64,000 nt of DNA from a virus. Lineage: Duplodnaviria > Caudoviricetes. Below the pieces are notes generated by a model. That model had not been told where the DNA came from, did not search any database, and worked only from the letters and a program-made list of their open reading frames with translations. Below, one piece after another: positions 5,915 through 32,570 of this stretch. The DNA lies in IMG/VR virus record IMGVR_UViG_3300031784_000002; one strand, given 5' to 3'. Position 1 is the stretch's first letter; each line of letters begins with the position of its first letter. The translations under genes and the position numbers were made by a program.

Positions 5915-8114
5915 CCACGAAGTCAAAGGTCATCTCGCCCGTCTCCTCGCAACTGAAGATCTGGTGGTGGAACACAAGAATGTTCCCACTGCATCCTTCA
6001 ATGTGGATACTCGTGTTCTGATTCTTCCAATGTGGGAGAAGGCTTCTAACGCAGTCTATGATATGCTTGTGGGCCATGAAGTAGGTCATGCACTCTATAC
6101 TCCTAATGAAGATTGGAGTGTGAAGTTCTCCATTCCTCAACAATTCGTGAATGTGACTGAAGACGCTCGGATTGAGAAACTGATGAAGCGTCGTTATGGT
6201 GGAATGAACAAGTGTTTCTATGCAGGTTATCGGGAGCTGCATGATGACGATTTCTTTCAAGTAAAAGACGAAGATCTTTCTACTTTTAATCTGGCTGATC
6301 GTGTCAATCTATATTTCAAGATTGGAAACTATCTTGAACTTCAGTTCAATCCAGAGGAACTGGAGATCGTTGAAATGATTGGTGATGCAGAAACTTTTGA
6401 TGAAGCGATTGAAGCCGCTGTAAAACTCTACGAATATTGTAAGAAAGAACAGAAACAAGAAACTAAGATTAGTTCTCTGGATAATGTTGAACATAATTTT
6501 GGAGGTGGGTCAGAACCTACTCCAGAATATCAGAATCAATCTGCAGAGGATGAACTGGAAACATCTGGAGATGGTGGTCAGGCGTCCTCTGAGGGTCAGT
6601 CAGAGGATAAGATGGATCAACCCACTATGGAACAAACCAATCAAGGTGGAGAGACCTCTGAACCCGAAGTCCGTACCGCTGATAGTCTTGAGGAAGCGAT
6701 TAGGGATCTTGTAAACACTTCTTCTTATGAGAATGTTTATGTTGAACTTCCTAAACTGAATCTGAATACTGTGATTGCACTTAACTCTGAAATCCATGCG
6801 GAGATCAATAACTGGTGGAATAAGTCTGTAGAAAAGTTTGGTGAGACTTGTTCAAATCCGCGAGACGTTCTCTTTAAAAGTGTTGATAAAGAGTACCTTG
6901 AGTTTAAGCGTTCGGCTCAGAAGGAAGTCAACTATCTGGTGAAGGAGTTTGAATGTAAGAAAGCCGCAGACTCTTATGCTCGTTCAACCACGGCTCGTAC
7001 TGGTGTTTTGGATTGTTCCAAACTTCACACCTACAAATATAATGAAGACTTGTTCCGCAAGGTAACGACTCTTGCAGATGGCAAGAATCACGGTCTGGTG
7101 TTCATTCTAGACTGGTCTGGATCTATGAGTAATGTGATGCAAGACACGATCAAACAACTTTATAACTTGATTTGGTTCTGTAAGAAAGTCACAATTCCCT
7201 TTGAGGTTTATGCATTTACCAATGAGTGGCGACGTAATTCTTATGATGAGGATGGAAATTTTATTAAAATGGAACCTCATTACCAGAAGAAACATGGTTT
7301 GATTCATGTTGATGAGTCTTTCTCTCTGATGAATCTTTTCACCAGTAAAGTAAACAATCGTGTTCTTGAAGAACAGATGATTAACATCTATCGGATTGCT
7401 AAGGAATTTAAGTATTCTTATAATAATGCACCGATGTATACTACTCCAGCTCGTTTGTGTCTTTCTGGTACTCCTTTGAATGAGTCTTTGATTGCTCTTC
7501 ATCAAATTCTTCCTAAGTTCCAAAAAGAAAATAAACTCCAGAAAGTTCAGTGCGTTGTTCTTACTGATGGTGAAGCTTGTTATCTTAAGTTTCACAAAGA
7601 GTTTACTGGTCGTTCCAAAAACAATCCAGAGGAAGTTTATATTGGACTGAACTCCCTCCAGAGCTATCCTTCTTTTATTCGTGATCGTAAGGTTGGTCGT
7701 ACTTATAAAGTTCGTGAAGAATATCATCAACTGACTGATACTCTTCTTGAGAATCTTCGAGATAGTTTTCCTTCCGTAAACTTTATTGGTATGCGAGTTC
7801 TTGAGAATCGTGAGGCCAATTCTTTTATTCGTAAGTATTACAATAACTACGATTACTCTTCTGGTTATTGTCAAGATAACAAAGAATATATTCAGGTTAT
7901 TAATGATTGGAAAAAGAATCGTTCTTTTTCGATCAAAAATTCTGGATACCATTCTTATTTTGGTCTTTCTGGTTCGGCTCTTTCTCAGGAAAGTGAGTTT
8001 GATGTTGCAGAGGATGCAAGTAAGAGTCAGATTAAATCTGCTTTTGTAAAATCATTGAAGAGTAAGAAAATGAACAAAAAAATTCTTGGGGAATTTATTG
8101 ATCTAGTTGCATGA
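5904..8114 (+). CDS. HExxH metallopeptidase-like domain plus vWA domain protein (CobT-like partner of the CobS AAA)
   Basis: HEVGHA zincin motif, acidic linker, vWA MIDAS motif DWSGS, and GTPL and LTDGE motifs. Confidence 0.85.
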   Translation: MPVNHEVKGHLARLLATEDLVVEHKNVPTASFNVDTRVLILPMWEKASNAVYDMLVGHEVGHALYTPNEDWSVKFSIPQQFVNVTEDARIEKLMKRRYGGMNKCFYAGYRELHDDDFFQVKDEDLSTFNLADRVNLYFKIGNYLELQFNPEELEIVEMIGDAETFDEAIEAAVKLYEYCKKEQKQETKISSLDNVEHNFGGGSEPTPEYQNQSAEDELETSGDGGQASSEGQSEDKMDQPTMEQTNQGGETSEPEVRTADSLEEAIRDLVNTSSYENVYVELPKLNLNTVIALNSEIHAEINNWWNKSVEKFGETCSNPRDVLFKSVDKEYLEFKRSAQKEVNYLVKEFECKKAADSYARSTTARTGVLDCSKLHTYKYNEDLFRKVTTLADGKNHGLVFILDWSGSMSNVMQDTIKQLYNLIWFCKKVTIPFEVYAFTNEWRRNSYDEDGNFIKMEPHYQKKHGLIHVDESFSLMNLFTSKVNNRVLEEQMINIYRIAKEFKYSYNNAPMYTTPARLCLSGTPLNESLIALHQILPKFQKENKLQKVQCVVLTDGEACYLKFHKEFTGRSKNNPEEVYIGLNSLQSYPSFIRDRKVGRTYKVREEYHQLTDTLLENLRDSFPSVNFIGMRVLENREANSFIRKYYNNYDYSSGYCQDNKEYIQVINDWKKNRSFSIKNSGYHSYFGLSGSALSQESEFDVAEDASKSQIKSAFVKSLKSKKMNKKILGEFIDLVA

Positions 8115-8134
8115 GGGGTATACCCCTCTTTTTT
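8113..8134 (+). terminator. Rho-independent terminator
   Basis: GAGGGG-TATA-CCCCTC followed by a T-run. A TAAATA late-promoter core follows at 8137-8142. Confidence 0.8.
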
Positions 8135-8163
8135 ACTAAATACTTAAAAAAGTATTTGTAAAG

Positions 8164-9699
8164 ATGAACTCTAACGATTTTCAAAACCTAACTGAAGCTT
8201 ATAATCAAGTACATCAACTTGATGAAGTGTTAGACACTCCTGAAAAAGCGAATGAATATGCCAAAAAGAATGTAAAATCTATGGTTGGTGCTTTTGTTAA
8301 AGGTGCTGTTAACAAAGATATTAGTCAACTGAAAACCATAGAAAAAAGAAAAAGAGGAGCGGAACTGGGAAAAAGAAAGGCAGAAAGAAAGTCAGCAGAG
8401 GAAAAGAATGAAGAGTTTGAAACTTGGGTAAATGAACTTATGGAAGAGGGTTATGATCTCTCCGACTATACTTGGGAAGAGATGCATGAGTTCTATCTAG
8501 ATGAAGCAGAAGGTTCATACGGTGAAACTCCAAAGGCATACAGTGCAGCATCAAAGACCAAGATGACTGCAAAGAGAAAGCCTTTCCTCAAGAAAATGCT
8601 CAGAAGAACTAATCCTGCAGAAAGAAAGTCTGAGACTTCTCCAAGAAAAGGAATGACTGCTTCTGATAGGGAAGAAGCAAGAGCAGGTGATGCACATGGT
8701 TCACCTAGGGGTCATGATTACCCTTCACAGGGCCCTGGTGGAGTAACTAAGAATCCTAAGAAACTCCGTAAGCAAAAAGCAATGGGAGAGTTTGCTAAAG
8801 AAGAACTTGATGTCTTTGATGTAGTCCTTGAGTTCCTCCAAGTAGAAGGATACGCAGAAACTCTGGAAGAGGCAGAGTGGATGATGGCAAATGAACTAGA
8901 TGAGGAAACCATTGATGCAATCCTTGAAGCAGAAGGTTCTTACGGTAAGACACCCAAGGCAAGAGCAGCAATGGGTAAACTTGCTATTGCAAGACGTGAG
9001 AAACCTGCAAGTGAGTATTCGCAGAAAGGTGAGAAAACTAAAAAAGTAAAATCAATCGAAAAGCATACTCAGAGAATTGATAACGGTCCTGATGTAGGAA
9101 ATCGTGGTAAGAAATCTACTAAACCAAGATGGTCTGGGATGTTAGGCAAATCTGGTAGGGGTAAACTTGACCAAGATAGTAGAGATTATGCAAGAGATAG
9201 TGCTGTTGAGTATACTTCTGGCGGACACAAACCTGGTTCTGGTACTGTAACCAAGAACCCCAAGAAACTCCGTAAGCAAAAGGCTATGGGTGAGATTGGC
9301 GAAAGTTTTGACACATATGAATTTGTTTTGTGTCATCTTCTAGATGAGGGATATGCTTCAACCGAAGAAGCCGCAGATAAAATCATTCTCAACATGAGTG
9401 AAGCTTGGTTTGAAGATATTATGGAATTGAATCGTGTTGAAAAGGAAACTGGTATCAACACTAAAACTGGTAGACCAACTGCCAAAGGTGGCGCTAAGGA
9501 TGATAAAGCATATACTAGCGTAAAAAGAATGATGCGTAAAATGGAGGGAACTCCTGCGGGCCAAAGAAAAAAAGAACCAGGTAAAAAGCCACCTAAAGCT
9601 GGTGAATATGGCGGTCCAAGATCACCCGAACAAAAAGTTGCAAAACTCCGTGCAGACAAAAAACGCAGTGCAGATATGATGAGTTCTCGATTTGACTGA
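8164..9699 (+). CDS. Modular, internally repetitive late protein; candidate head internal (poly)protein
   Basis: Repeats EAEGSYG.TPKA (x2), KNPKKLRKQKAMGE (x2) and acidic L..EGY...EEA modules (x3). TAAATA lies upstream. Confidence 0.7.
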   Translation: MNSNDFQNLTEAYNQVHQLDEVLDTPEKANEYAKKNVKSMVGAFVKGAVNKDISQLKTIEKRKRGAELGKRKAERKSAEEKNEEFETWVNELMEEGYDLSDYTWEEMHEFYLDEAEGSYGETPKAYSAASKTKMTAKRKPFLKKMLRRTNPAERKSETSPRKGMTASDREEARAGDAHGSPRGHDYPSQGPGGVTKNPKKLRKQKAMGEFAKEELDVFDVVLEFLQVEGYAETLEEAEWMMANELDEETIDAILEAEGSYGKTPKARAAMGKLAIARREKPASEYSQKGEKTKKVKSIEKHTQRIDNGPDVGNRGKKSTKPRWSGMLGKSGRGKLDQDSRDYARDSAVEYTSGGHKPGSGTVTKNPKKLRKQKAMGEIGESFDTYEFVLCHLLDEGYASTEEAADKIILNMSEAWFEDIMELNRVEKETGINTKTGRPTAKGGAKDDKAYTSVKRMMRKMEGTPAGQRKKEPGKKPPKAGEYGGPRSPEQKVAKLRADKKRSADMMSSRFD

Positions 9700-9737
9700 G
9701 AATAAATAATTTATATTATTGATTGATTTATTGGGTT

Positions 9738-10700
9738 ATGAAACTTTTTGAAAAAAATAGAGTAAGATTTACTTTTGAACTAGAAAATAACCAATTTTTA
9801 CAATTAGAGTATCAGTTACAATTGAATAGTTTGAGAGAAAAATGGGTAAATGAGGTTAAGGATTCTCTGAAAAAACCAGATGCATATCTTAACCTCAAAA
9901 TATCAAATAAAAATTATCTTCATCTAGGTGAACTAAAAGAAAAATTAAATTCTATAGTTAAGCAAATTAATGATGCTTATGGAGATGAAATTTTAGTTTC
10001 TTTCAAAGGAACAAAAAATATATGCAGAAATACATTGAATTATTTACATGAAAAATTTGAGGAGTATGGAGAATACGGAGCTGGAGATGGTGAAGGCCCG
10101 TGGTATCGTGGCCAAAAAGTTCATGATCTTTGGTTAGATTTAAATGAATGGATTCATGTGACTGAAACCGCAATGGATTCAACTCCAAGAGATTATCCAA
10201 ATTATAGTGCCTTAGTTACGGTTTATCCTCCATATCCTGGTAAAGATTTAGAAGAAACAGATAAATTATTTTTAACCGCAGAATATGCATGGGGTCATCT
10301 TTATCTTGGATATAATACCTTAGGTAAAGATTATTTGCATGTTTGGTTGGACAATGATGTTCGAGTAATTACTAATAACCAAATAAAAGTTCAGAATAAG
10401 TATAGTTCAGAAGTCTGGCTCTGTTTTCAAGAAGCTTCGTTTTTTTTAAACGAAGCTGAATCGCAGTATTACAAATGGTATAAAACCCTAAGTAAAGAAG
10501 TTCGGGATTTGATTCCTACAGATGATCTGAGTAAATTCGCTTTTGGTAGATATTATCTTGGATGCATCATAATTAATCGAGATCTTTCAAAGTTTCATCC
10601 AATTGAATATGATTGGTATACTGACAAAGATTTACAAAAGAGGTGGAATAATGAAGTTTTTTCAAAGGTTAAGGGGATAAAAAAAGTTGAGTTTTTATGA
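9738..10700 (+). CDS. Hypothetical protein (AT-rich insert)
   Basis: ORF of about 320 aa. ATAAATA at 9702-9708. No family motif recognised. Confidence 0.7.
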   Translation: MKLFEKNRVRFTFELENNQFLQLEYQLQLNSLREKWVNEVKDSLKKPDAYLNLKISNKNYLHLGELKEKLNSIVKQINDAYGDEILVSFKGTKNICRNTLNYLHEKFEEYGEYGAGDGEGPWYRGQKVHDLWLDLNEWIHVTETAMDSTPRDYPNYSALVTVYPPYPGKDLEETDKLFLTAEYAWGHLYLGYNTLGKDYLHVWLDNDVRVITNNQIKVQNKYSSEVWLCFQEASFFLNEAESQYYKWYKTLSKEVRDLIPTDDLSKFAFGRYYLGCIIINRDLSKFHPIEYDWYTDKDLQKRWNNEVFSKVKGIKKVEFL

Positions 10701-12706
10701 ATAAAGTAATTGATGAATTTGTGAAATTTTCATTGAGAAATCAATGGTATCCCACAAGTGTACCAAAATATTTTGATGTGTTTGAGTCCGATTGGCCTTT
10801 TCTGCAAATAGACTTTAAAGATGACTTTGAAAAGATGCACCAAGAGTGTATTAAAAATGATCATCTATTTGTTGGACATAGACAAAAAGATAAACACCTG
10901 AGTTATTCCCATGATGGTTGGTCGGCTTTAACTTTGCATGGCATAAGACCTGATGCTACCGAAAATTATGATCAGTATGGATTGTCTGAACCAAATTACA
11001 AATGGACAGATGCATGTAAATATTTTCCAACTTGTGTTGAGTTCTTAAAAAAATTGGGATATAAAGATTATGATAGAGTCAGAATCATGAGACTGGCTCC
11101 TGGTGGATATATTATGCCTCATTCTGATGGAGAAGGTAGAATCTTTGGTCCTTTAAATATAGCAATTAATAATCCAGAAGGGTGTAATTTTTACTTTAAA
11201 AATTGGGGAAGAGTTCCTTTTAAACAAGGAACCGGATTTTTTCTTGATATAGGTAATATTCATGCGGTTCATAACAATAGTAATGAGCCTAGATATCATT
11301 TTATAGTTCATGGGCACATTAATGATAGATTGATTCAAACTGCATTTAAACAAATTGACATGAGAGAAGAAAAAATTTGTTACGGAGTTTATAATCAAAG
11401 GCAGTCAATTAATAGTTTTTCAATGTATTTGAGAGCTAAAGGTGCGACTTTGTTTTACCTCAACCGACCTAGAAATAATGCAGAGATAATTTGTGCAGAT
11501 GAAGTACATGAAATATTGAAAGAGGCTTTGATTAAGGGGTATCGATATTGTGTAATACAATCTGCTGGATGTACTCTAAGAAGTTTTGATTACGATAGAG
11601 AAATTAGAGATTTTATAAAAGAAAATAATTTTGGAGTCGCTGGTCATATACTAGCTTGGCCTGGAAAATGGTTGGAGTTACATCCGCAGTTTTTTATAGT
11701 TAATGTTTCTGCATGGAAAGATGTTGGATGTCCAGAATTTGGGGAGTGGTGTTCTGGTAAACAATTACTACCTGTAGTAGAAAGAAGTGTTGAAAATTTT
11801 CACGATGACTACACACCTTTGTGGGTTAAGTATTCAAAAAAACAAACCATTCAATCTGAAGCAGGAAGAGGTTGGAAACTTTTAAAGGCTATGTTTTTGA
11901 ATAATTGGCCTGTAATAACATTGAGTGAAAAATTGCGATTCAATAAATTTTATTATTATCCTGAACATGAAACAGAAAAATTCGAAAACAGTATAAAAAC
12001 TTTGACTCCGTATGAGGGACAAAATTGGAATCAATCTAAAATCATATCTGATGTAAAATTAATAAAAGATCAAATTTGGTTATTTAATAGTGAATCAATG
12101 TGTATAACTAATGGGGGTAATTTTGATCTCGTTGTTAATACTGCAAGTGGATTTAAATTATTCGATATTTTTAAAAATAAAAAACTCAATAATAATGGAA
12201 AAGTTATAGTCTATGATTTTAATTCAAAAAGTTTAAGATGGTACAAACATTTTCACGGTTGGAAAAATGATGATCTAATTGATTGTATTAGAAGTTTTTC
12301 GGAAAAAGATCATTTTACTTGGATAGGTAAAACGGATTGTAATTATGTTGAGGATGAATCTTTTTCAAATTTATATAAAGAACTAATTGACCACTTTGGT
12401 GGAGTTAATAATTTTGTTAAATATTGGAAAATTTTTAAAAAAACTCAAGTCAAATTTGCGATGGTTGATTTATATAAAGATTCTGAAAAGTTCTCAAATA
12501 TTTTTGTGGGGAAAGGAAAGAAGTTTGTCAATTTGTCAAACATTTTTTCTACAGATGCCACAACATTTTTATATGGACATGTTGAAGTTCAGACTTCACA
12601 GCAAAGGTGTTTAGCTTCTTTGTATGTTGTTGATCCTGAAATACAAATTTCTATTTTTGATTTTTGGGGACGAAATTTGGTTGGTAAAGTAAAAGACATA
12701 TTGTAG
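10697..12706 (+). CDS. Aspartyl/asparaginyl beta-hydroxylase-like 2OG-Fe(II) domain fused to about 450 aa of unknown domain(s)
   Basis: RIMRLAPGGYIMPHSD (HxD) and HAVHNNSNEPRYHFIVH jelly-roll motifs in the N-terminal third. Confidence 0.75.
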   Translation: MNKVIDEFVKFSLRNQWYPTSVPKYFDVFESDWPFLQIDFKDDFEKMHQECIKNDHLFVGHRQKDKHLSYSHDGWSALTLHGIRPDATENYDQYGLSEPNYKWTDACKYFPTCVEFLKKLGYKDYDRVRIMRLAPGGYIMPHSDGEGRIFGPLNIAINNPEGCNFYFKNWGRVPFKQGTGFFLDIGNIHAVHNNSNEPRYHFIVHGHINDRLIQTAFKQIDMREEKICYGVYNQRQSINSFSMYLRAKGATLFYLNRPRNNAEIICADEVHEILKEALIKGYRYCVIQSAGCTLRSFDYDREIRDFIKENNFGVAGHILAWPGKWLELHPQFFIVNVSAWKDVGCPEFGEWCSGKQLLPVVERSVENFHDDYTPLWVKYSKKQTIQSEAGRGWKLLKAMFLNNWPVITLSEKLRFNKFYYYPEHETEKFENSIKTLTPYEGQNWNQSKIISDVKLIKDQIWLFNSESMCITNGGNFDLVVNTASGFKLFDIFKNKKLNNNGKVIVYDFNSKSLRWYKHFHGWKNDDLIDCIRSFSEKDHFTWIGKTDCNYVEDESFSNLYKELIDHFGGVNNFVKYWKIFKKTQVKFAMVDLYKDSEKFSNIFVGKGKKFVNLSNIFSTDATTFLYGHVEVQTSQQRCLASLYVVDPEIQISIFDFWGRNLVGKVKDIL

Positions 12707-16970: not shown

Positions 16971-18092
16971 ATGCAATTAGAACTTGATGATGCTGTTTAC
17001 GCAGCCGATAAATTCATTGATTACTTTTCTAACATGGGAAGGATTGATGAATATCTGCGTAACATTAAACTTGAACGAATGGAACAAATGCCTTCATCCA
17101 TTCTTGGGATTGGTCCTGAGGATGATATGTTTGATGCATTTGACATGCACCCACAGGACATGAACTTTAAAGTTTATACTGCGGGGGAGAGGGGTGGATT
17201 TACAAATGAATATTTTAATGAGAGGTTGCAGATTACTACCTCTCACGCGATTGAGGATAGTATTCCTGGTAAGTCTCTGAAGTGGATTGTACAAGAAACT
17301 AACACACAGAAGATTGTTGGTTTCTGTCGGTTTGGTTCTCCCACAATCAACTCTAAACCTCGCAATGATTGGCTTGGACAAACTCCCCAGTTGTCTAGGT
17401 TTAATCGTCATGCAATCATGGGATTCATTATTGTCCCAACCCAACCTTTTGGTTTCAACTATCTGGGAGGTAAACTCCTTGCACTTCTTTGTTGTTCTCA
17501 TACTGCTCGTGAGACGTTAAATAAGAAGTATGGATCAGATATTTGTTCTTTTGAGACCACTTCTCTTTATGGTTCCACTAAGGCCTCATCTCAGTATGAT
17601 GGTCTGAAACCTTATATGAGGTATAAGGGTCTAACTCAAAGTGATTTTACTCCTCTGCTCCATGACGAGATCTTTCAGGACTTAAACAAATGGTTTATTC
17701 AGAGGAACGACAATCAATCTCTGGTGAAGGAGGACGCATCCAGTCGGAAACTCAAGACACAACAAAAGATGATCTCAATCATCAAGAAAAGCTTACCTTC
17801 TCAAAAGGTTGTGGAGTTCCAGACTGCGATTGCAAATGCAAAAAATCTGACTGAACAGAAGAGATTTTATATTTCAGATTATGGTTTTGAGAATGCTCGT
17901 GAAGTCATTCTTGGACAAGATGAAGTTCTGCGTCCTGGTCAAAACTATGACAAGTTTCACTTTGACCATCTTGTGAACTGGTGGAAGAAAAAGGCTTCTA
18001 ATCGTTATGAAAATTTGAAGTCCGAAGGTCGTCTTCGTACTGAACTTGAGACTTGGAACAAGAACCCCGAATCGATTGATATTATCCGATGA
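16971..18092 (+). CDS. Conserved protein with similarity to the DUF4338/Druantia DruA family
   Basis: VPTQPFGFNYLGGKLLALL and ETTSLYG..K.SQY motifs, recognised by eye. Confidence 0.6.
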   Translation: MQLELDDAVYAADKFIDYFSNMGRIDEYLRNIKLERMEQMPSSILGIGPEDDMFDAFDMHPQDMNFKVYTAGERGGFTNEYFNERLQITTSHAIEDSIPGKSLKWIVQETNTQKIVGFCRFGSPTINSKPRNDWLGQTPQLSRFNRHAIMGFIIVPTQPFGFNYLGGKLLALLCCSHTARETLNKKYGSDICSFETTSLYGSTKASSQYDGLKPYMRYKGLTQSDFTPLLHDEIFQDLNKWFIQRNDNQSLVKEDASSRKLKTQQKMISIIKKSLPSQKVVEFQTAIANAKNLTEQKRFYISDYGFENAREVILGQDEVLRPGQNYDKFHFDHLVNWWKKKASNRYENLKSEGRLRTELETWNKNPESIDIIR

Positions 18093-19035: not shown

Positions 19036-19473
19036 ATGTTACTCGCAAAGTACAACACGGCTAACATTGACAAATTTTTAAATGATATTGAAAAATATAG
19101 TATTGGAATGGATGAGTGGTTTAATCGATTTGGGACCGCACATGAGTCCTATCACAACTACCCACCATACAATTTGATTAAGGAGAGTGAGACGGAGTTC
19201 CGTTTAGAGATCGCTCTTGCAGGATACAAAAAGGAAGATTTTGAAGTTTTCACTGAATGGAATAAACTCTTCGTTGAAGCGAAGAAGTCGGAAACTTCTG
19301 ATGTAGGGGAATATCTTCACAATGGTCTTGCAAAGAGGGCTTTTACAAGAACCTGGACACTATCTGACGATGTTAAAGTCTCTGATGTCAAGTTTGAGGA
19401 TGGTCTACTCCATGTCAAACTAAATAGGATTATCCCTGAGCATCAGAAACGAAAGGTGTATGAAATCCTTTAA
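19036..19473 (+). CDS. hsp20: Small heat shock protein Hsp20 (IbpA-like)
   Basis: NYPPYNLIK, FRLEIALAG, YLHNGLAKRAF and FEDGLL motifs. Confidence 0.93.
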   Translation: MLLAKYNTANIDKFLNDIEKYSIGMDEWFNRFGTAHESYHNYPPYNLIKESETEFRLEIALAGYKKEDFEVFTEWNKLFVEAKKSETSDVGEYLHNGLAKRAFTRTWTLSDDVKVSDVKFEDGLLHVKLNRIIPEHQKRKVYEIL

Positions 19474-19648
19474 GCAGTTCTTAGAACAAGTCGGAAACAT
19501 TAAACAGATTTCTTACCCTGCTGCCGTTAGGCATAAAATCTACAATCCGTTGACTGGAAAATCAAAAGTAGTCCCTGCAGGAAAAGCTGTGCCTAAGAAT
19601 CCAGGCGGGGGTGGATCTGGTAATTCCGCAGATGGTGATGGAGCCTAA
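19460..19648 (+). CDS. Small protein with a T4 capsid-targeting-like N-terminus (MKSFKQFLEQ)
   Basis: 62-aa ORF. TAAATA at 19421-19426 lies inside hsp20. Confidence 0.6.
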   Translation: MKSFKQFLEQVGNIKQISYPAAVRHKIYNPLTGKSKVVPAGKAVPKNPGGGGSGNSADGDGA

Positions 19649-27885: not shown

Positions 27886-29145
27886 ATGAAGAATTTTACT
27901 CAGTTCCTCACTGAAGCTAGAGAAACCTCTGCATCTACAGAAGCCAAGAGACTTGGTTTAACTGGAGATGGTCACGGTGGTTGGTATGATAAGAATGGAG
28001 AGTTTGTTGCAAAAACTGTTGCTGGTAAACTAAAGTTCTTTGGTAGTGACAACACTCCAGGACAAAAGGATTCCCCATCACAATCAACTGCACAAGCAAC
28101 TCCACAACCTGCAGCCGCAGAAGTTCCTGCAACTGCCGCACAACCAACGCAACAAGTTTCTGCACCTTCATCAGAACAACCTGCACAACAACAAGTTGCA
28201 CCAGAACAACAACCTGAAGAAGTGCCAGTTCCAGAAGCGCCTGGTGTTGTTGTAGTATTTGGTAGATTCAATCCACCCACCATTGGTCACGAAAAACTTC
28301 TAAAGAGAGCCGCAAAGGAAGCGGAAAAGAGAGGTTACGAGTTAAGAATTTATCCTTCTAGATCACAAGACGCTAAAAAGAATCCTCTGACTCCACAAAT
28401 GAAGATCTCTTACATGCGTCAGATGTTCCCTGATTATGCTGGCAGTATTGTTGACGACAAGGGTGCAAAGACTATTTTCAATGTACTCACCGGTGCAAAT
28501 GGAGAAGGTCATACCAACATGATCATTATGGTTGGTCAAGATAGATTGGGGGAATTCCAAGGTTTAAGTCACAAGTATAATGGTGAACTTTATAATTATG
28601 ATCAACTTGAAGTAGTTTCTGCTGGAGATAGAGATCCAGATTCCGATGATGTAACTGGAATGTCTGCATCTAAACTTCGTCTTGCTGCAGCAGAGGGTGA
28701 CTTTAAGAAGTTCGCAAAAGGTGTTCCCGATACTCTTGGTAATACTGAGAAGATGGAACTTTTCAATGTTCTTCGTAGATCTATGAATATTGAAGAGGGG
28801 ACTGAAGTATGGGAAGTTGCTCCTAAACTAGATGAAGAAGCTCTTAGAGATGCATATCTAGTAGATCGCATTTATGAAGTTGGTAACCTTGTTGAAAATA
28901 TGAACACCGGTCTCAAAGGAGAAGTGATTCGTAGGGGAACAAACTATGTGATTTGTGTGAGTGAAGATGGAATCATGTTCAAATCTTGGTTGAAGGATCT
29001 TATTGAGAATCCTCATGAGATTGGTACTGATGAGTATAGAGAATACCTTCAGTCATTAACTCCAGGTCAAGAAGTTAAGAGTTACACTGGTGTAAAGATT
29101 GCATCTATTTACGATAAATTCCGTAAGGGCAAAAAGAATAAATAA
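27886..29145 (+). CDS. HIGH-motif nucleotidyltransferase (cyanophage 'cytidyltransferase') with an extra N-terminal region
   Basis: FGRFNPPTIGH, VGQDR and MSASKLR motifs, a Q/P/A-rich linker and an N-terminal MKNFTQFLTE. Confidence 0.85.
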   Translation: MKNFTQFLTEARETSASTEAKRLGLTGDGHGGWYDKNGEFVAKTVAGKLKFFGSDNTPGQKDSPSQSTAQATPQPAAAEVPATAAQPTQQVSAPSSEQPAQQQVAPEQQPEEVPVPEAPGVVVVFGRFNPPTIGHEKLLKRAAKEAEKRGYELRIYPSRSQDAKKNPLTPQMKISYMRQMFPDYAGSIVDDKGAKTIFNVLTGANGEGHTNMIIMVGQDRLGEFQGLSHKYNGELYNYDQLEVVSAGDRDPDSDDVTGMSASKLRLAAAEGDFKKFAKGVPDTLGNTEKMELFNVLRRSMNIEEGTEVWEVAPKLDEEALRDAYLVDRIYEVGNLVENMNTGLKGEVIRRGTNYVICVSEDGIMFKSWLKDLIENPHEIGTDEYREYLQSLTPGQEVKSYTGVKIASIYDKFRKGKKNK

Positions 29146-29170: not shown

Positions 29171-32100
29171 ATGGCTAGTTGGGAAGAATTTTCACGTATT
29201 GTTGCAGAAGCTAAATCTGTTAAGAAGTTAGATCCTGTCGGTCATGAAGATGACGACGTTGATAATGATGGTGATTCGGACTCTTCCGATACTTACCTCA
29301 AGAAGAGAAGAGCTACTGTTGGAGCTGCCATTGCTGCAGACAAGAAGAGAAAAGTTGAAGAAGCAAAACAACTAGATCCAGTTGGTAAAGAAGACAAAGA
29401 TATCGATAATGATGGTGATCACGATAAGTCTGATAAGTATCTTTTAAATCGTAGAAAAGTTAGATCAAAAATTATTGATCCTCAGGAAAGATTGAAGACT
29501 GATAGAGATATGTTTAATATCCCTAAGTCTGAACAGGAAGCTGCTCGTGAGAGAATTCTTGCGAAGACAAAGGCAAAGAGAATGAAAGAGGAAGTAGAAC
29601 AGATTGATGAAATTGCGCCTTTAGTTGCTGCTGGACTTGCTGCTGGTGGCGCCGCTCTTGCTGGTGCAGCTATTAATAGAGCAAAAAAAGCTGCAGATTC
29701 TGGAGTTGATGCTGCGAATAAAGGTCTAAAAGTTAAGAATCCTGGAACTGGTATCGCAGGTGCTGCATACGGAATGCAAAAAAGAAATAATGCATTAAAT
29801 GATGCAATGAAACAACTTCGACAGTCTTATGAATTTGAGGGTGAAATAGTTGATGAAGATAAAGAATACCGTCGTGAGATGGCAAAGGCTGCTGCAAGAG
29901 AAAGAGCAGAAGAGAAGAGATCTGAAGAGAACTATAGAACTAAAGGTAGAATTGGTAAAAAGAAAGCAGGTCCCAAGTTGAGTACAACTCCACATAGGGA
30001 ATCCGAATCAAAAAATTATGCTGATAAAGAAGTGGGTTCTATTAAACTATATGATAAACTTACAAAGAAAAATAAGAATGTTGTAGGTCTCGTTACTAAA
30101 GAAGAGAACGAGATTGAAGAAGGCATGTCCATGAAGGACTTCAAAGCAAATCGTCAGAAGAATAAAAGAAGAGCTGCTTCTGCCGATGCTGAGAAGAGAG
30201 GTCATGTAGGTAAGGAATGGTACAACAGTGGTAGAAAGTATTCTCCCGATGAAGCAAAGAGAAGTCGTGCAAACATGGATGATGAAGAAAGACGTACAAG
30301 ACATCGTAGTGCTGTAGATCCTGATAATGAGGATGATAATAATTACTCTGCAGACAAGACGAAGAATCCTAAGAAACTTCGCAAACAAAAAGCGATGGGA
30401 GAGGGATACCTTGCAGAGAAATCTCTAAGTAGAGCACAACAGAGATTCATGGGCATGGTTTATGCTGCAAAGAAAGGTGAAACTCCTGCATCACCTGAGG
30501 TTGCCAAGGCTGCATCTGGAATGAGTAAGAAAGCTGCAAGAGATTTTGCAAAGACAAAACATGAAGGTCTTCCAGAAAAGAAAGAAGAATTTTCTTTGGT
30601 GGATAGATTAGTCATGGAGTTTTCCCCATTAAGTGAAGGTAAACTTGATGATCTTCTTGCTGATATTCGTTCAGAAGATGATGGAAATAAAAAAAAACCT
30701 CAATCAAAAAAATCTGAACCTGTAAAAAAACCTCAAGCAAAAAAGTCTGAACCTGTAAAAAAGCCTCAAGCAAAAAAATCTGAATCAGAGAGAAAAGAAC
30801 AATCGAAAGAAGAAGTAAAAACCAGAAATACTGCAACTGAAAGAGCTGCAAGAACTTCTGCTGCTTCTAGGATTCGTGCTGCAAGAATTGCAAGAGAAAC
30901 TGAAAAGGAAAAAGAAGCCGCTAGGACTGAAAGACAACGTGAAAGAATGAGTTATGCTGAGAAAAATAAAGAATCTAAGGCAAAACAAAAAGAGTTAGAG
31001 AGTAAGAAAAAAGAGGAATCTAGCGCAGCTAAAGCAAAACAAAAAGAGGACGATAAAAAAAGAAAGGAACAAGCTAGTGCCGCAAAAGAATCAGCAAAAG
31101 CAAAACAAAAAGAAGCAAAAGACAGGCAAAGTGAATTAGAAAAAAAGGAAAGAGAGAAAAAGAATCAACTGAAAGCAAAAGAGGATTCTAGAAAACAGAG
31201 AAGATCTGAATTGGCTCGAGATGTTAAGTCTGCTTGGAGTGGATCAACAAAAGTTGCTGGTGATAAAAAAGATACTGAAGCAGTAGCTGCAGGTATGAGT
31301 AATGTGGGAAGTTTAGTATCTGGTGTTGCTAAAACTGGACTTGCTCTTGGAAAATATGCTTATAAGAAGGCAAAAGAAAAAAGAGCGGAGAAAACATCAG
31401 AAACTCCTAGTTCAAATCAACCAGAAAAAAAGGAACCAACAAAACCAGAGGCACCACAATCCACTAGTAGTGCAACTCAAAAAGCTCCTACTACAACAAA
31501 ACCAGATACGACTCAGAAAAAGTTAACTGGAACTCCAGAGAGAACAAAGTTGACTGCAACTCCAGAAAGAAAAAAATTAGTTCCATCAACAAAACGACTT
31601 CCTCCTGCAGGTCAAACAACTACAAATGCTTCTCCGAAAAGAGAAACTGGAATGACATTGGGACAAAGAGCTAGAAGAAATCCAGCATTGAAGTCCGCAT
31701 TAATGAAAAATAGAATGGAAGAGTATTCAAATTGGAGAGAGGAGTTTATTTTTGAAGTAGACGATCAAACAGTACAAAATCAAAAACAAAAAGTTATTGA
31801 TGTTTCCAAAAAGAAGAATAAAATTGAAATTAATCCAACAATGAGTGAAGGATGTGGTTGTGATGAAAAAGAAAATGAAAAGGAAACTCCAAAAAAAGAT
31901 ATGAGAGATTTACCTACTAAAGTAAATCTTTTGAAAACCAAACTAAGATCAGCGGGAGTTAGAAATCCTATTGTAATGGTTGGAGTTAAAGAGGATTGGC
32001 AATCGGTAAATCGCAAAGATAAAACTGATGGTCTCAGTCAGAAAGCTGTAGATGTTTATCGTCGTGAGAATCCAGGTTCAAAACTTCAGACTGCAGTAAC

Positions 32101-32251
32101 CGAAAAAAAGCCTACGGGCAAAAGGGCTGAACGCCGTAAGTCCTTTTGCTCAAGAATGAACGGCATGAAGGATAGACTAACTTCCGCAGAAACCGCAAGA
32201 GATCCAGATTCAAACATCAACAAAGCCCTTCGTCGTTGGAACTGTAACTAA
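29171..32251 (+). CDS. Large modular, highly charged late protein; candidate head internal polyprotein
   Basis: LDPVG.ED.D.DNDGD repeat (x2), KNPKKLRKQKAMGE, a DUF3008-like KSLSRAQQRFMGMV...TKHEGLP module, KKSEPVKKPQA tandem repeats and a C-terminal RRKSFCSRM...RRWNC module. ATAAATA at 29138-29144. Confidence 0.75.
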   Translation: MASWEEFSRIVAEAKSVKKLDPVGHEDDDVDNDGDSDSSDTYLKKRRATVGAAIAADKKRKVEEAKQLDPVGKEDKDIDNDGDHDKSDKYLLNRRKVRSKIIDPQERLKTDRDMFNIPKSEQEAARERILAKTKAKRMKEEVEQIDEIAPLVAAGLAAGGAALAGAAINRAKKAADSGVDAANKGLKVKNPGTGIAGAAYGMQKRNNALNDAMKQLRQSYEFEGEIVDEDKEYRREMAKAAARERAEEKRSEENYRTKGRIGKKKAGPKLSTTPHRESESKNYADKEVGSIKLYDKLTKKNKNVVGLVTKEENEIEEGMSMKDFKANRQKNKRRAASADAEKRGHVGKEWYNSGRKYSPDEAKRSRANMDDEERRTRHRSAVDPDNEDDNNYSADKTKNPKKLRKQKAMGEGYLAEKSLSRAQQRFMGMVYAAKKGETPASPEVAKAASGMSKKAARDFAKTKHEGLPEKKEEFSLVDRLVMEFSPLSEGKLDDLLADIRSEDDGNKKKPQSKKSEPVKKPQAKKSEPVKKPQAKKSESERKEQSKEEVKTRNTATERAARTSAASRIRAARIARETEKEKEAARTERQRERMSYAEKNKESKAKQKELESKKKEESSAAKAKQKEDDKKRKEQASAAKESAKAKQKEAKDRQSELEKKEREKKNQLKAKEDSRKQRRSELARDVKSAWSGSTKVAGDKKDTEAVAAGMSNVGSLVSGVAKTGLALGKYAYKKAKEKRAEKTSETPSSNQPEKKEPTKPEAPQSTSSATQKAPTTTKPDTTQKKLTGTPERTKLTATPERKKLVPSTKRLPPAGQTTTNASPKRETGMTLGQRARRNPALKSALMKNRMEEYSNWREEFIFEVDDQTVQNQKQKVIDVSKKKNKIEINPTMSEGCGCDEKENEKETPKKDMRDLPTKVNLLKTKLRSAGVRNPIVMVGVKEDWQSVNRKDKTDGLSQKAVDVYRRENPGSKLQTAVTEKKPTGKRAERRKSFCSRMNGMKDRLTSAETARDPDSNINKALRRWNCN
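30697..30785 (+). repeat. 33-bp coding tandem repeat (KKPQ[S/A]KKSEPV)
   Basis: aaaaaacctcaa(t/g)caaaaaa(a/g)tctgaacctgta is repeated about 2.7 times. Confidence 0.8.
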
Positions 32252-32252
32252 A

Positions 32253-32570
32253 ATGAAATCCTTCAAACAATTTTTATCAGAATCTATCAATATTGCTGGT
32301 GACTTTAACGGCAACCTATACGTCAATGGTTCTGAACCACAATCGCAACCAGTTGGAGAGTCTTTCTTTGCTGATGTAATGTGGGAAGGAAAGATTTATA
32401 GACTGGAAGTGGAGGGTTCTATGATGGATAAGAACGCTCTTGCTGAACAACTTCAGGATGAGTATCCTGGAGCAATTGTTCACAACATTTATCCATCACA
32501 ATCACAAAGTTCTTTAAGAATTAAAAATACGCAAAGATATCAACCAGAAAGACTAACTTGGACTGATTAA
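32253..32570 (+). CDS. Conserved hypothetical protein with a capsid-targeting-like N-terminus (MKSFKQFLSE)
   Basis: 105-aa ORF, 1 nt after the preceding stop. Confidence 0.7.
   Translation: MKSFKQFLSESINIAGDFNGNLYVNGSEPQSQPVGESFFADVMWEGKIYRLEVEGSMMDKNALAEQLQDEYPGAIVHNIYPSQSQSSLRIKNTQRYQPERLTWTD

Follow-up and report, generated by a model that had tools for sequence, protein, structure and literature searches.

A late cyanophage gene built of exchangeable spacer and cargo cassettes, a candidate counterpart of the T4 internal proteins

The stretch of viral DNA analysed here (hereafter the window, 64,000 nucleotides of the IMG/VR record IMGVR_UViG_3300031784_000002) contains a gene, ORF A, whose predicted product joins acidic and basic pieces end to end, some of them repeated within the protein and one found again in a second gene, ORF B. 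This organisation raises the question of what such a composite protein could do for the phage, and of how its parts came to be spread over several genes. The question extends beyond one genome: T4-like cyanophages rank with the most abundant viruses of lakes and oceans, carry many unexplained virion proteins, and are without recognisable genes for the T4 internal proteins (IPs), gp67 and gp68 (for the last two, PMC2984593).

Genomic setting and layout of ORF A

The window comes from the genome of an uncultured T4-like cyanomyovirus, with gp55, gp46/47, gp45/44/62, gp43, uvsX, gp41, nrdAB, cobS and CobT-like vWA genes, and all cultured phages matching ORF A (58 of 58) infect Synechococcus or Prochlorococcus. 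ORF A has 1077 relatives, and the identical protein is encoded on 31 contigs. The JGI contigs that encode it are 100% identical to the window where they overlap and place gp20, gp21 (Peptidase S77), gp22 and gp23 of the same phage just upstream of it; the L009 contig, 100% identical to the window over 9859 nt, itself encodes the Peptidase S77 gp21. Two small ORFs lie between gp20 and gp21 on this contig (L009:6081-6576), one of 64 aa whose acidic tail recalls T4 gp67 in position and style, the other of 89 aa with likely counterparts detected in the virions of S-SCSM1 and S-SZBM1. Elsewhere in the window, a late-promoter island of two genes (9701-12706), the second with an Asp/Asn beta-hydroxylase domain (PF05118), lies between the CobT-like and cobS genes and varies among relatives, and a 373-aa ORF of the DruA family (PF14236) sits inside the clamp-loader operon (16971-18092).

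The terminator and TAAATA box that the preliminary description had placed ahead of ORF A are both present (Table 1). TAAATA stands 21 nt before the start codon within the octamer ACTAAATA, one mismatch away from the cyanophage late promoter consensus NATAAATA (PMC2984593). It is found at most 40 nt from all 37 genes with the same type of leader, versus 80 of 315 other ORFs, and 26 of the 37 also carry the 5' UTR motif; promoter, UTR and leader move jointly across relatives. An ORF A-type leader is present in at least 94 of 146 proteins with spacers. This promoter points to late expression of ORF A.

The protein reads leader-M1-S1-M2-S2-M3-S3-M4, with a strict alternation of charge sign. The alternation of acidic spacers and basic modules had been described before, together with an EGY...EEA pattern of the spacers that fits S2 and S3 and fails for S1, a member of a different, shorter family. 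The duplicated AEGSYG module starts, after LDE and ILE, and the start of the last module after IME were located as previously reported.

Table 1. Coordinates of ORF A, ORF B and their parts in the window
Feature	Position	Strand	Remarks
Terminator-like hairpin, GC-rich, with T-run	8113..8136	+	Ends the upstream CobT-like/vWA ("peptidase", phrog_459) gene
Late promoter core (TAAATA 8137-8142) and conserved A/T-rich 5' UTR	8135..8163	+	UTR and leader move together between loci
ORF A, 511-aa modular polyprotein-like late protein	8164..9699	+	
N-terminal leader, aa 1-21, net -4	8164..8226	+	L-x-E followed by A (aa 9-12) and L-D-E (aa 19-21); a candidate propeptide for head targeting
Basic module M1, aa 22-84, net +6	8227..8415	+	Predicted helical
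Acidic spacer S1, aa 85-114, net -11	8416..8505	+	Ends L-D-E; phrog_3708/27516 segment
Basic module M2, aa 115-209, net +13	8506..8790	+	Framed by AEGSYG start and K-box
K-box copy 1, 15 aa	8746..8790	+	Ends M-G-E; sequence repeat
Acidic three-helix spacer S2, aa 210-255, net -15	8791..8928	+	Ends I-L-E
Basic module M3, aa 256-377, net +18	8929..9294	+	AEGSYG start and K-box; laterally exchanged, 88% DNA identity with S-SZBM1_194
K-box copy 2	9250..9294	+	Sequence repeat
Acidic three-helix spacer S3, aa 378-421, net -11	9295..9426	+	Ends I-M-E; same family as S2
Basic terminal module M4, aa 422-511, net +14	9427..9696	+	Homologues: virion-detected S-SCSM1 ORF92, S-CRM01 g291
ORF B, 1026-aa modular late protein	29171..32251	+	Follows the cytidylyltransferase/NMNAT gene; without S1/S2 spacer
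ORF B basic module, aa 318-411, after I-E-E	30122..30403	+	Ends in K-box copy 3 (30359-30403); cargo family unlike M2/M3

The repeats within ORF A are far beyond chance (DNA self-matches with E 5e-12 and 2e-10). M2 and M3 have in common only their first 12 residues and the K-box, of which the 14 residues noted earlier do lie at nt 8749-8790, 9253-9294 and 30362-30403. The module said to be common to ORF A and ORF B thereby reduces to the K-box, the 47 residues preceding it in ORF B belonging to a different cargo family; a search of ORF B for an S1/S2 spacer or leader found none. The three K-box copies differ from one another at 5-9 of 45 nt and every change is synonymous, which marks them as old duplicates under protein-level selection rather than fresh copies. 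For the same reason we rejected a purely DNA-level recombination box as the sole explanation of the K-box; such arms are probably selected as protein and may also serve as homology.

Modules have been exchanged between genes and between distant phages

Module order is not fixed across homologues: the same parts occur in dozens of orders and copy numbers among 120 homologues and 80 viral loci. At least five genomic positions recur, among them those after gp46, after the CobT-like gene, after MazG with a small ORF, after the cytidylyltransferase gene and between the terminase genes. The ends of DNA homology fall at most 3 residues from a module joint in 88 of 167 cases where 10% would be expected, a count to be read knowing that these ends are not mutually independent and that conserved arms attract them.

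The clearest exchange involves the distant cultured phage S-SZBM1, where M3 is found at another locus. Over 110 kb of its genome, the best DNA match to the window is M3 with its K-box (8925-9302, 88% identical), versus 64-78% for core genes. At four-fold degenerate sites the M3 cassette is identical at 37 of 52 positions (71%), compared with 409 of 1036 (39%) in eight core genes (Fisher p 9e-6). Likewise, in L029 an S2-M3-K segment at a different locus is identical at 56 of 67 four-fold sites, versus 41-45% in the neighbouring gp41 and gp43. Both excesses indicate lateral transfer of cassettes. The idea of cassettes shuffled between loci, advanced in the preliminary description, is thus borne out by variable module order, by homology ends at the joints and by the four-fold-site comparisons; testing lateral exchange by breakpoints and by synonymous sites is new here. 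The promoter-leader, the spacers, the AEGSYG start and the K-box would act as homology arms, and their conservation would let whole spacer/cargo cassettes recombine between loci and phages.

Such variability of presence and position would also be expected of largely dispensable recombination debris, late-promoter cassettes spreading by homologous recombination with little benefit to the phage, and the T4 IPs and gp68 are indeed non-essential (PMC9958956). The synonymous-only variation of the K-box copies and the reading frames that more than a thousand relatives keep uninterrupted for hundreds of codons make this explanation highly improbable.

The gene of S-SZBM1 that carries the M3 cassette (S-SZBM1_194, P0063; L099:4683-6806) combines S1, M3, two K-boxes and two ORF B modules in reversed order. 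It ends in a SAM-lyase-like domain (PF23780), without PDB sequence match or likeness to T4 IPII, and is a candidate packaged anti-restriction enzyme.

Joint motif and link to the virus head

All joints display the same short motif. Each of the 122 distinct octamers found upstream of eight cargo families ends in hydrophobic-x-E (106 in L/I-x-E), a regularity to be weighed knowing that module boundaries were drawn after the motif had been seen, that the S2 helix end carries it by construction and that relatives are not independent samples. Before AEGSYG, Glu is invariant and never replaced by Asp in 81 of 81 contexts and position -3 is I, L, V or M, while positions -2 and -4 to -10 are free to vary (2-3.4 bits). 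K-boxes end in M/I/L-G-E in 227 of 227 cases. Across acid-to-basic transitions a hydrophobic residue at -2 is enriched before Glu (0.39 vs 0.18) but not before Asp (0.18), and no enrichment occurs in control proteins. In a spacer-selected set, the motif stands at the spacer end or just behind it in 218 of 237 cases, which partly follows from construction, and its Asp version does so in 95. All 17 hydrophobic-x-E motifs of ORF A lie in the leader, spacers or module ends and none inside basic modules; family-wide, no depletion inside basic stretches was seen (0.13 vs 0.14).

T4 gp21 cuts after L/I-x-E, and the IPIII propeptide is no longer cut once its Glu is replaced by Asp (PMC9026906). Since L-x-E is preserved at the propeptide joint of cyanophage gp23 in each of the 63 variants seen, the protease has probably retained this specificity. 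The joints would thus carry a T4-type head-protease signal, at which cutting is suggested by the motif.

The same features could belong to a polyampholyte that remains uncut in the prohead core or in the late cytoplasm, acting as scaffold helper or DNA chaperone, in which the joint Glu merely ends an acidic amphipathic helix or linker. The predicted folding of the spacers into helical bundles, the tendency of net charge towards zero as spacers are added and a slight enrichment of hydrophobic-x-E inside acidic stretches too (0.40 vs 0.31) would suit such a protein. It accounts poorly for a motif that is invariant in non-helical linkers and after unrelated leaders, for the strict exclusion of Asp and for K-boxes at protein ends, which have just 1-5 residues after the motif, and we judge it quite improbable.

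Two lines of evidence connect the modules with the head. Firstly, K-box modules stand directly behind T4-type targeting starts at six loci (L067, L069-L073): MKTFKEF..IAE, whose first seven residues are identical to T4 IPI, and MRTYQEFITE, to be compared with MKTYQEFIAE of T4 IPII/III. ORF A itself is devoid of the capsid targeting sequence MKT(Y/F)xEF..E, its leader being of a different conserved type. Secondly, mass spectrometry of the cyanophage S-SCSM1 detected 45 of 282 proteins in virions, its authors cautioning that abundant proteins can co-purify (PMC9602691). Both S-SCSM1 genes with ORF A modules are among them, ORF89 (leader and S2) and ORF92 (M4) (nominal p 0.025), as are all four with ORF A or ORF B modules (ORFs 29, 89, 92 and 93; nominal p 6e-4, limited by three of the four being neighbours). 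Peptides rich in lysine and arginine are poorly seen with trypsin. The list of 30 virion proteins of S-SZBM1 does not contain S-SZBM1_194, the carrier of S1, M3 and two K-boxes, though it includes the module-sharing ORF139 and the cytidylyltransferase (PMC9146016).

Other genes recall the T4 targeting system. Three late ORFs of the window (19460-19648, 27886-29145 and 32253-32570) have the targeting-like starts MKSFKQFLEQ, MKNFTQFLTE and MKSFKQFLSE, respectively; the second is the cytidylyltransferase/NMNAT, with homologues detected in virions of several cyanophages (PMC9602691, PMC9146016, PMC10665884). In the virion-detected S-SCSM1 ORF93 (L001:10721-10930), a 69-aa protein with the DUF3008-like module of ORF B, the targeting-like sequence is C-terminal instead of N-terminal.

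Spacers, cargo and proposed function

The S2/S3 spacer family, to which S1 adds a second one, folds as a three-helix bundle in the predicted structure (pLDDT 84) and occurs in 4,277 clusters at 50% identity without a Pfam name. The spacers of ORF A have about 40% hydrophobic residues versus 13-21% in cargo. As a conserved folded domain, the spacer should be more than charge filler. A fold search in the PDB returned generic helical bundles only, and all good viral matches were cyanophage proteins. The top four solved-structure matches were proteins with ANTAR, a three-helix bundle with an RNA-binding surface (Z 5.4-6.0, rmsd 2.4-3.1 A, 52-54 aligned residues, 9-19% identity); for helical bundles these values do not reach significance. 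The spacer carries acidic charge, and it did not match Pfam ANTAR. LisH (PF08513) was likewise below significance, with 8 of 146 proteins at E<=0.001 and just 4 of 74 isolated spacers, at E>=0.016. Comparison of the spacer profile with T4 gp68 and gp22 gave no homology (hhalign probability 0.2-0.3%), and modules had no match in core proteins of the same phage or in 80 gp22 loci. A complex prediction of a spacer with two gp22 core chains scored 0.24 against a mark of 0.32, which speaks neither for nor against an interaction. One apparent fusion of leader-M3-K in frame with the gp22 core, upstream of gp23 (P0111, L008:319-1488), was set aside as a possible chimera, because it comes from a single 2.7-kb contig, the gene upstream is that of the MazG-linked site and not gp21, and no such fusion occurs in the 80 gp22 loci.

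The segments that follow spacers are net basic in 96% of cases and form about 131 families among 217 segments, with no recognisable enzyme domain. ORF A and its modules had no named match in Pfam, PDB sequences or the ESM Atlas, and M2-M4 are predicted to be disordered (single-sequence pLDDT below 50). Median charge is -11 for spacers and +12 for the following cargo, and net charge per 100 aa falls from +5.1 without spacer to +0.3 with three. The earlier view that acidic spacers balance basic cargo is thus correct as a description; as a requirement it fails, 25 relatives having no spacer and spacer-cargo pairing being weak (rho -0.14). By roughly neutralising the cargo, spacers may keep the precursor soluble and off DNA until it is cut.

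We consider that ORF A probably encodes a late head-cargo polyprotein, the cyanophage counterpart of the T4 internal proteins, packed into the prohead and cut there. Its product would be made late and join the prohead core via the leader and/or the acidic helical spacers; the phage gp21 would cut after hydrophobic-x-Glu at every joint; the acidic pieces would leave like scaffold fragments, and the four basic, mostly disordered peptides of 60-120 residues would stay with the packaged DNA, most likely bind it and shield its charge, and be ejected with it. Generic DNA binding and charge shielding are favoured since basic charge and low hydrophobicity are the sole traits common to the cargo families, in which no enzyme is recognisable; DNA binding of the cargo is thus suggested by its composition.

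The main rival to generic DNA binding retains the packaging and cutting and makes the released peptides specific host-takeover or anti-defence effectors, in the manner of T4 IPI inhibiting GmrSD, their variety reflecting an arms race. The number of cargo families, the recent lateral exchange of whole cassettes and the very strong conservation of M3 and the K-box would agree with it, as would the SAM-lyase-like domain of S-SZBM1_194 (33 bits, cut-off 28), located behind an internal targeting-like sequence, and the report of a SAM hydrolase and of NMNAT-like enzymes from the virions of cyanophages (PMC10665884). Yet the cargo of ORF A has no known domain, low hydrophobicity and, for M2-M4, predicted disorder, and basic charge as the sole trait common to all families suggests a generic property; specific effectors therefore seem unlikely to us. 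A broader scheme of combinatorial peptide delivery is conceivable but doubtful. In it, distant phages would trade hundreds to thousands of interchangeable cassettes framed by shared homology arms, which double as targeting and cutting signals, would load them as polyproteins, process them inside the head and inject the products as effectors specific to the host.

Among known systems, ORF A most recalls T4 IPI, IPII, IPIII and Alt, which are also late, small, basic, non-conserved cargo behind an L/I-x-E propeptide (PMC9026906, PMC9958956); relatives of its modules occur behind IPI- and IPII/III-like starts, and a gp21-family protease is present in the genome. Each T4 IP is a separate protein behind a single N-terminal propeptide, whereas ORF A chains four cargos interspersed with folded acidic spacers, has another type of leader and a C-terminal tag that modules share, and consists of shuffled cassettes. 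No sequence homology was seen between the mature parts of the two. T4 gp68 similarly has an acidic N-terminal half, an L-N-E joint and a strongly basic C-terminal half and is cut by gp21, but ORF A is not located between gp20 and gp21, its parts are repeated and shuffled, and its spacer profile shows no detectable homology to gp68. The polyvalent proteins of phages and conjugative elements (cited in PMC7824862) are also multi-module with variable domain order and are injected; they are large and made up of recognisable enzyme domains, whereas the modules of ORF A are short and basic and match no known domain. Spacers or modules of ORF A recur in the "virion proteins" ORF89 and ORF92 of S-SCSM1 and in PHROG families 3708, 27516, 22522, 9737 and 11470 (unknown function), to which no function or modular logic has been attached, and a literature search, mostly outside subscription papers, found no description of the modular family. 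ORF A therefore resembles the T4 internal-protein system without its T4-type targeting sequence, and goes beyond it in being organised as a polyprotein, with folded spacers and exchanged cassettes.

These results provide a testable grammar, from promoter-leader and spacer through the hydrophobic-x-E joint to cargo and K-box, by which the roughly 4,300 clusters of this unnamed family can be read. The grammar predicts the exact mature N-termini of virion proteins in cultured phages, and the results point to a wide and so far unexplored repertoire of DNA-binding or anti-defence peptides. If true, the combination of polyprotein processing and exchanged cassettes would widen the paradigm set by the T4 internal proteins.
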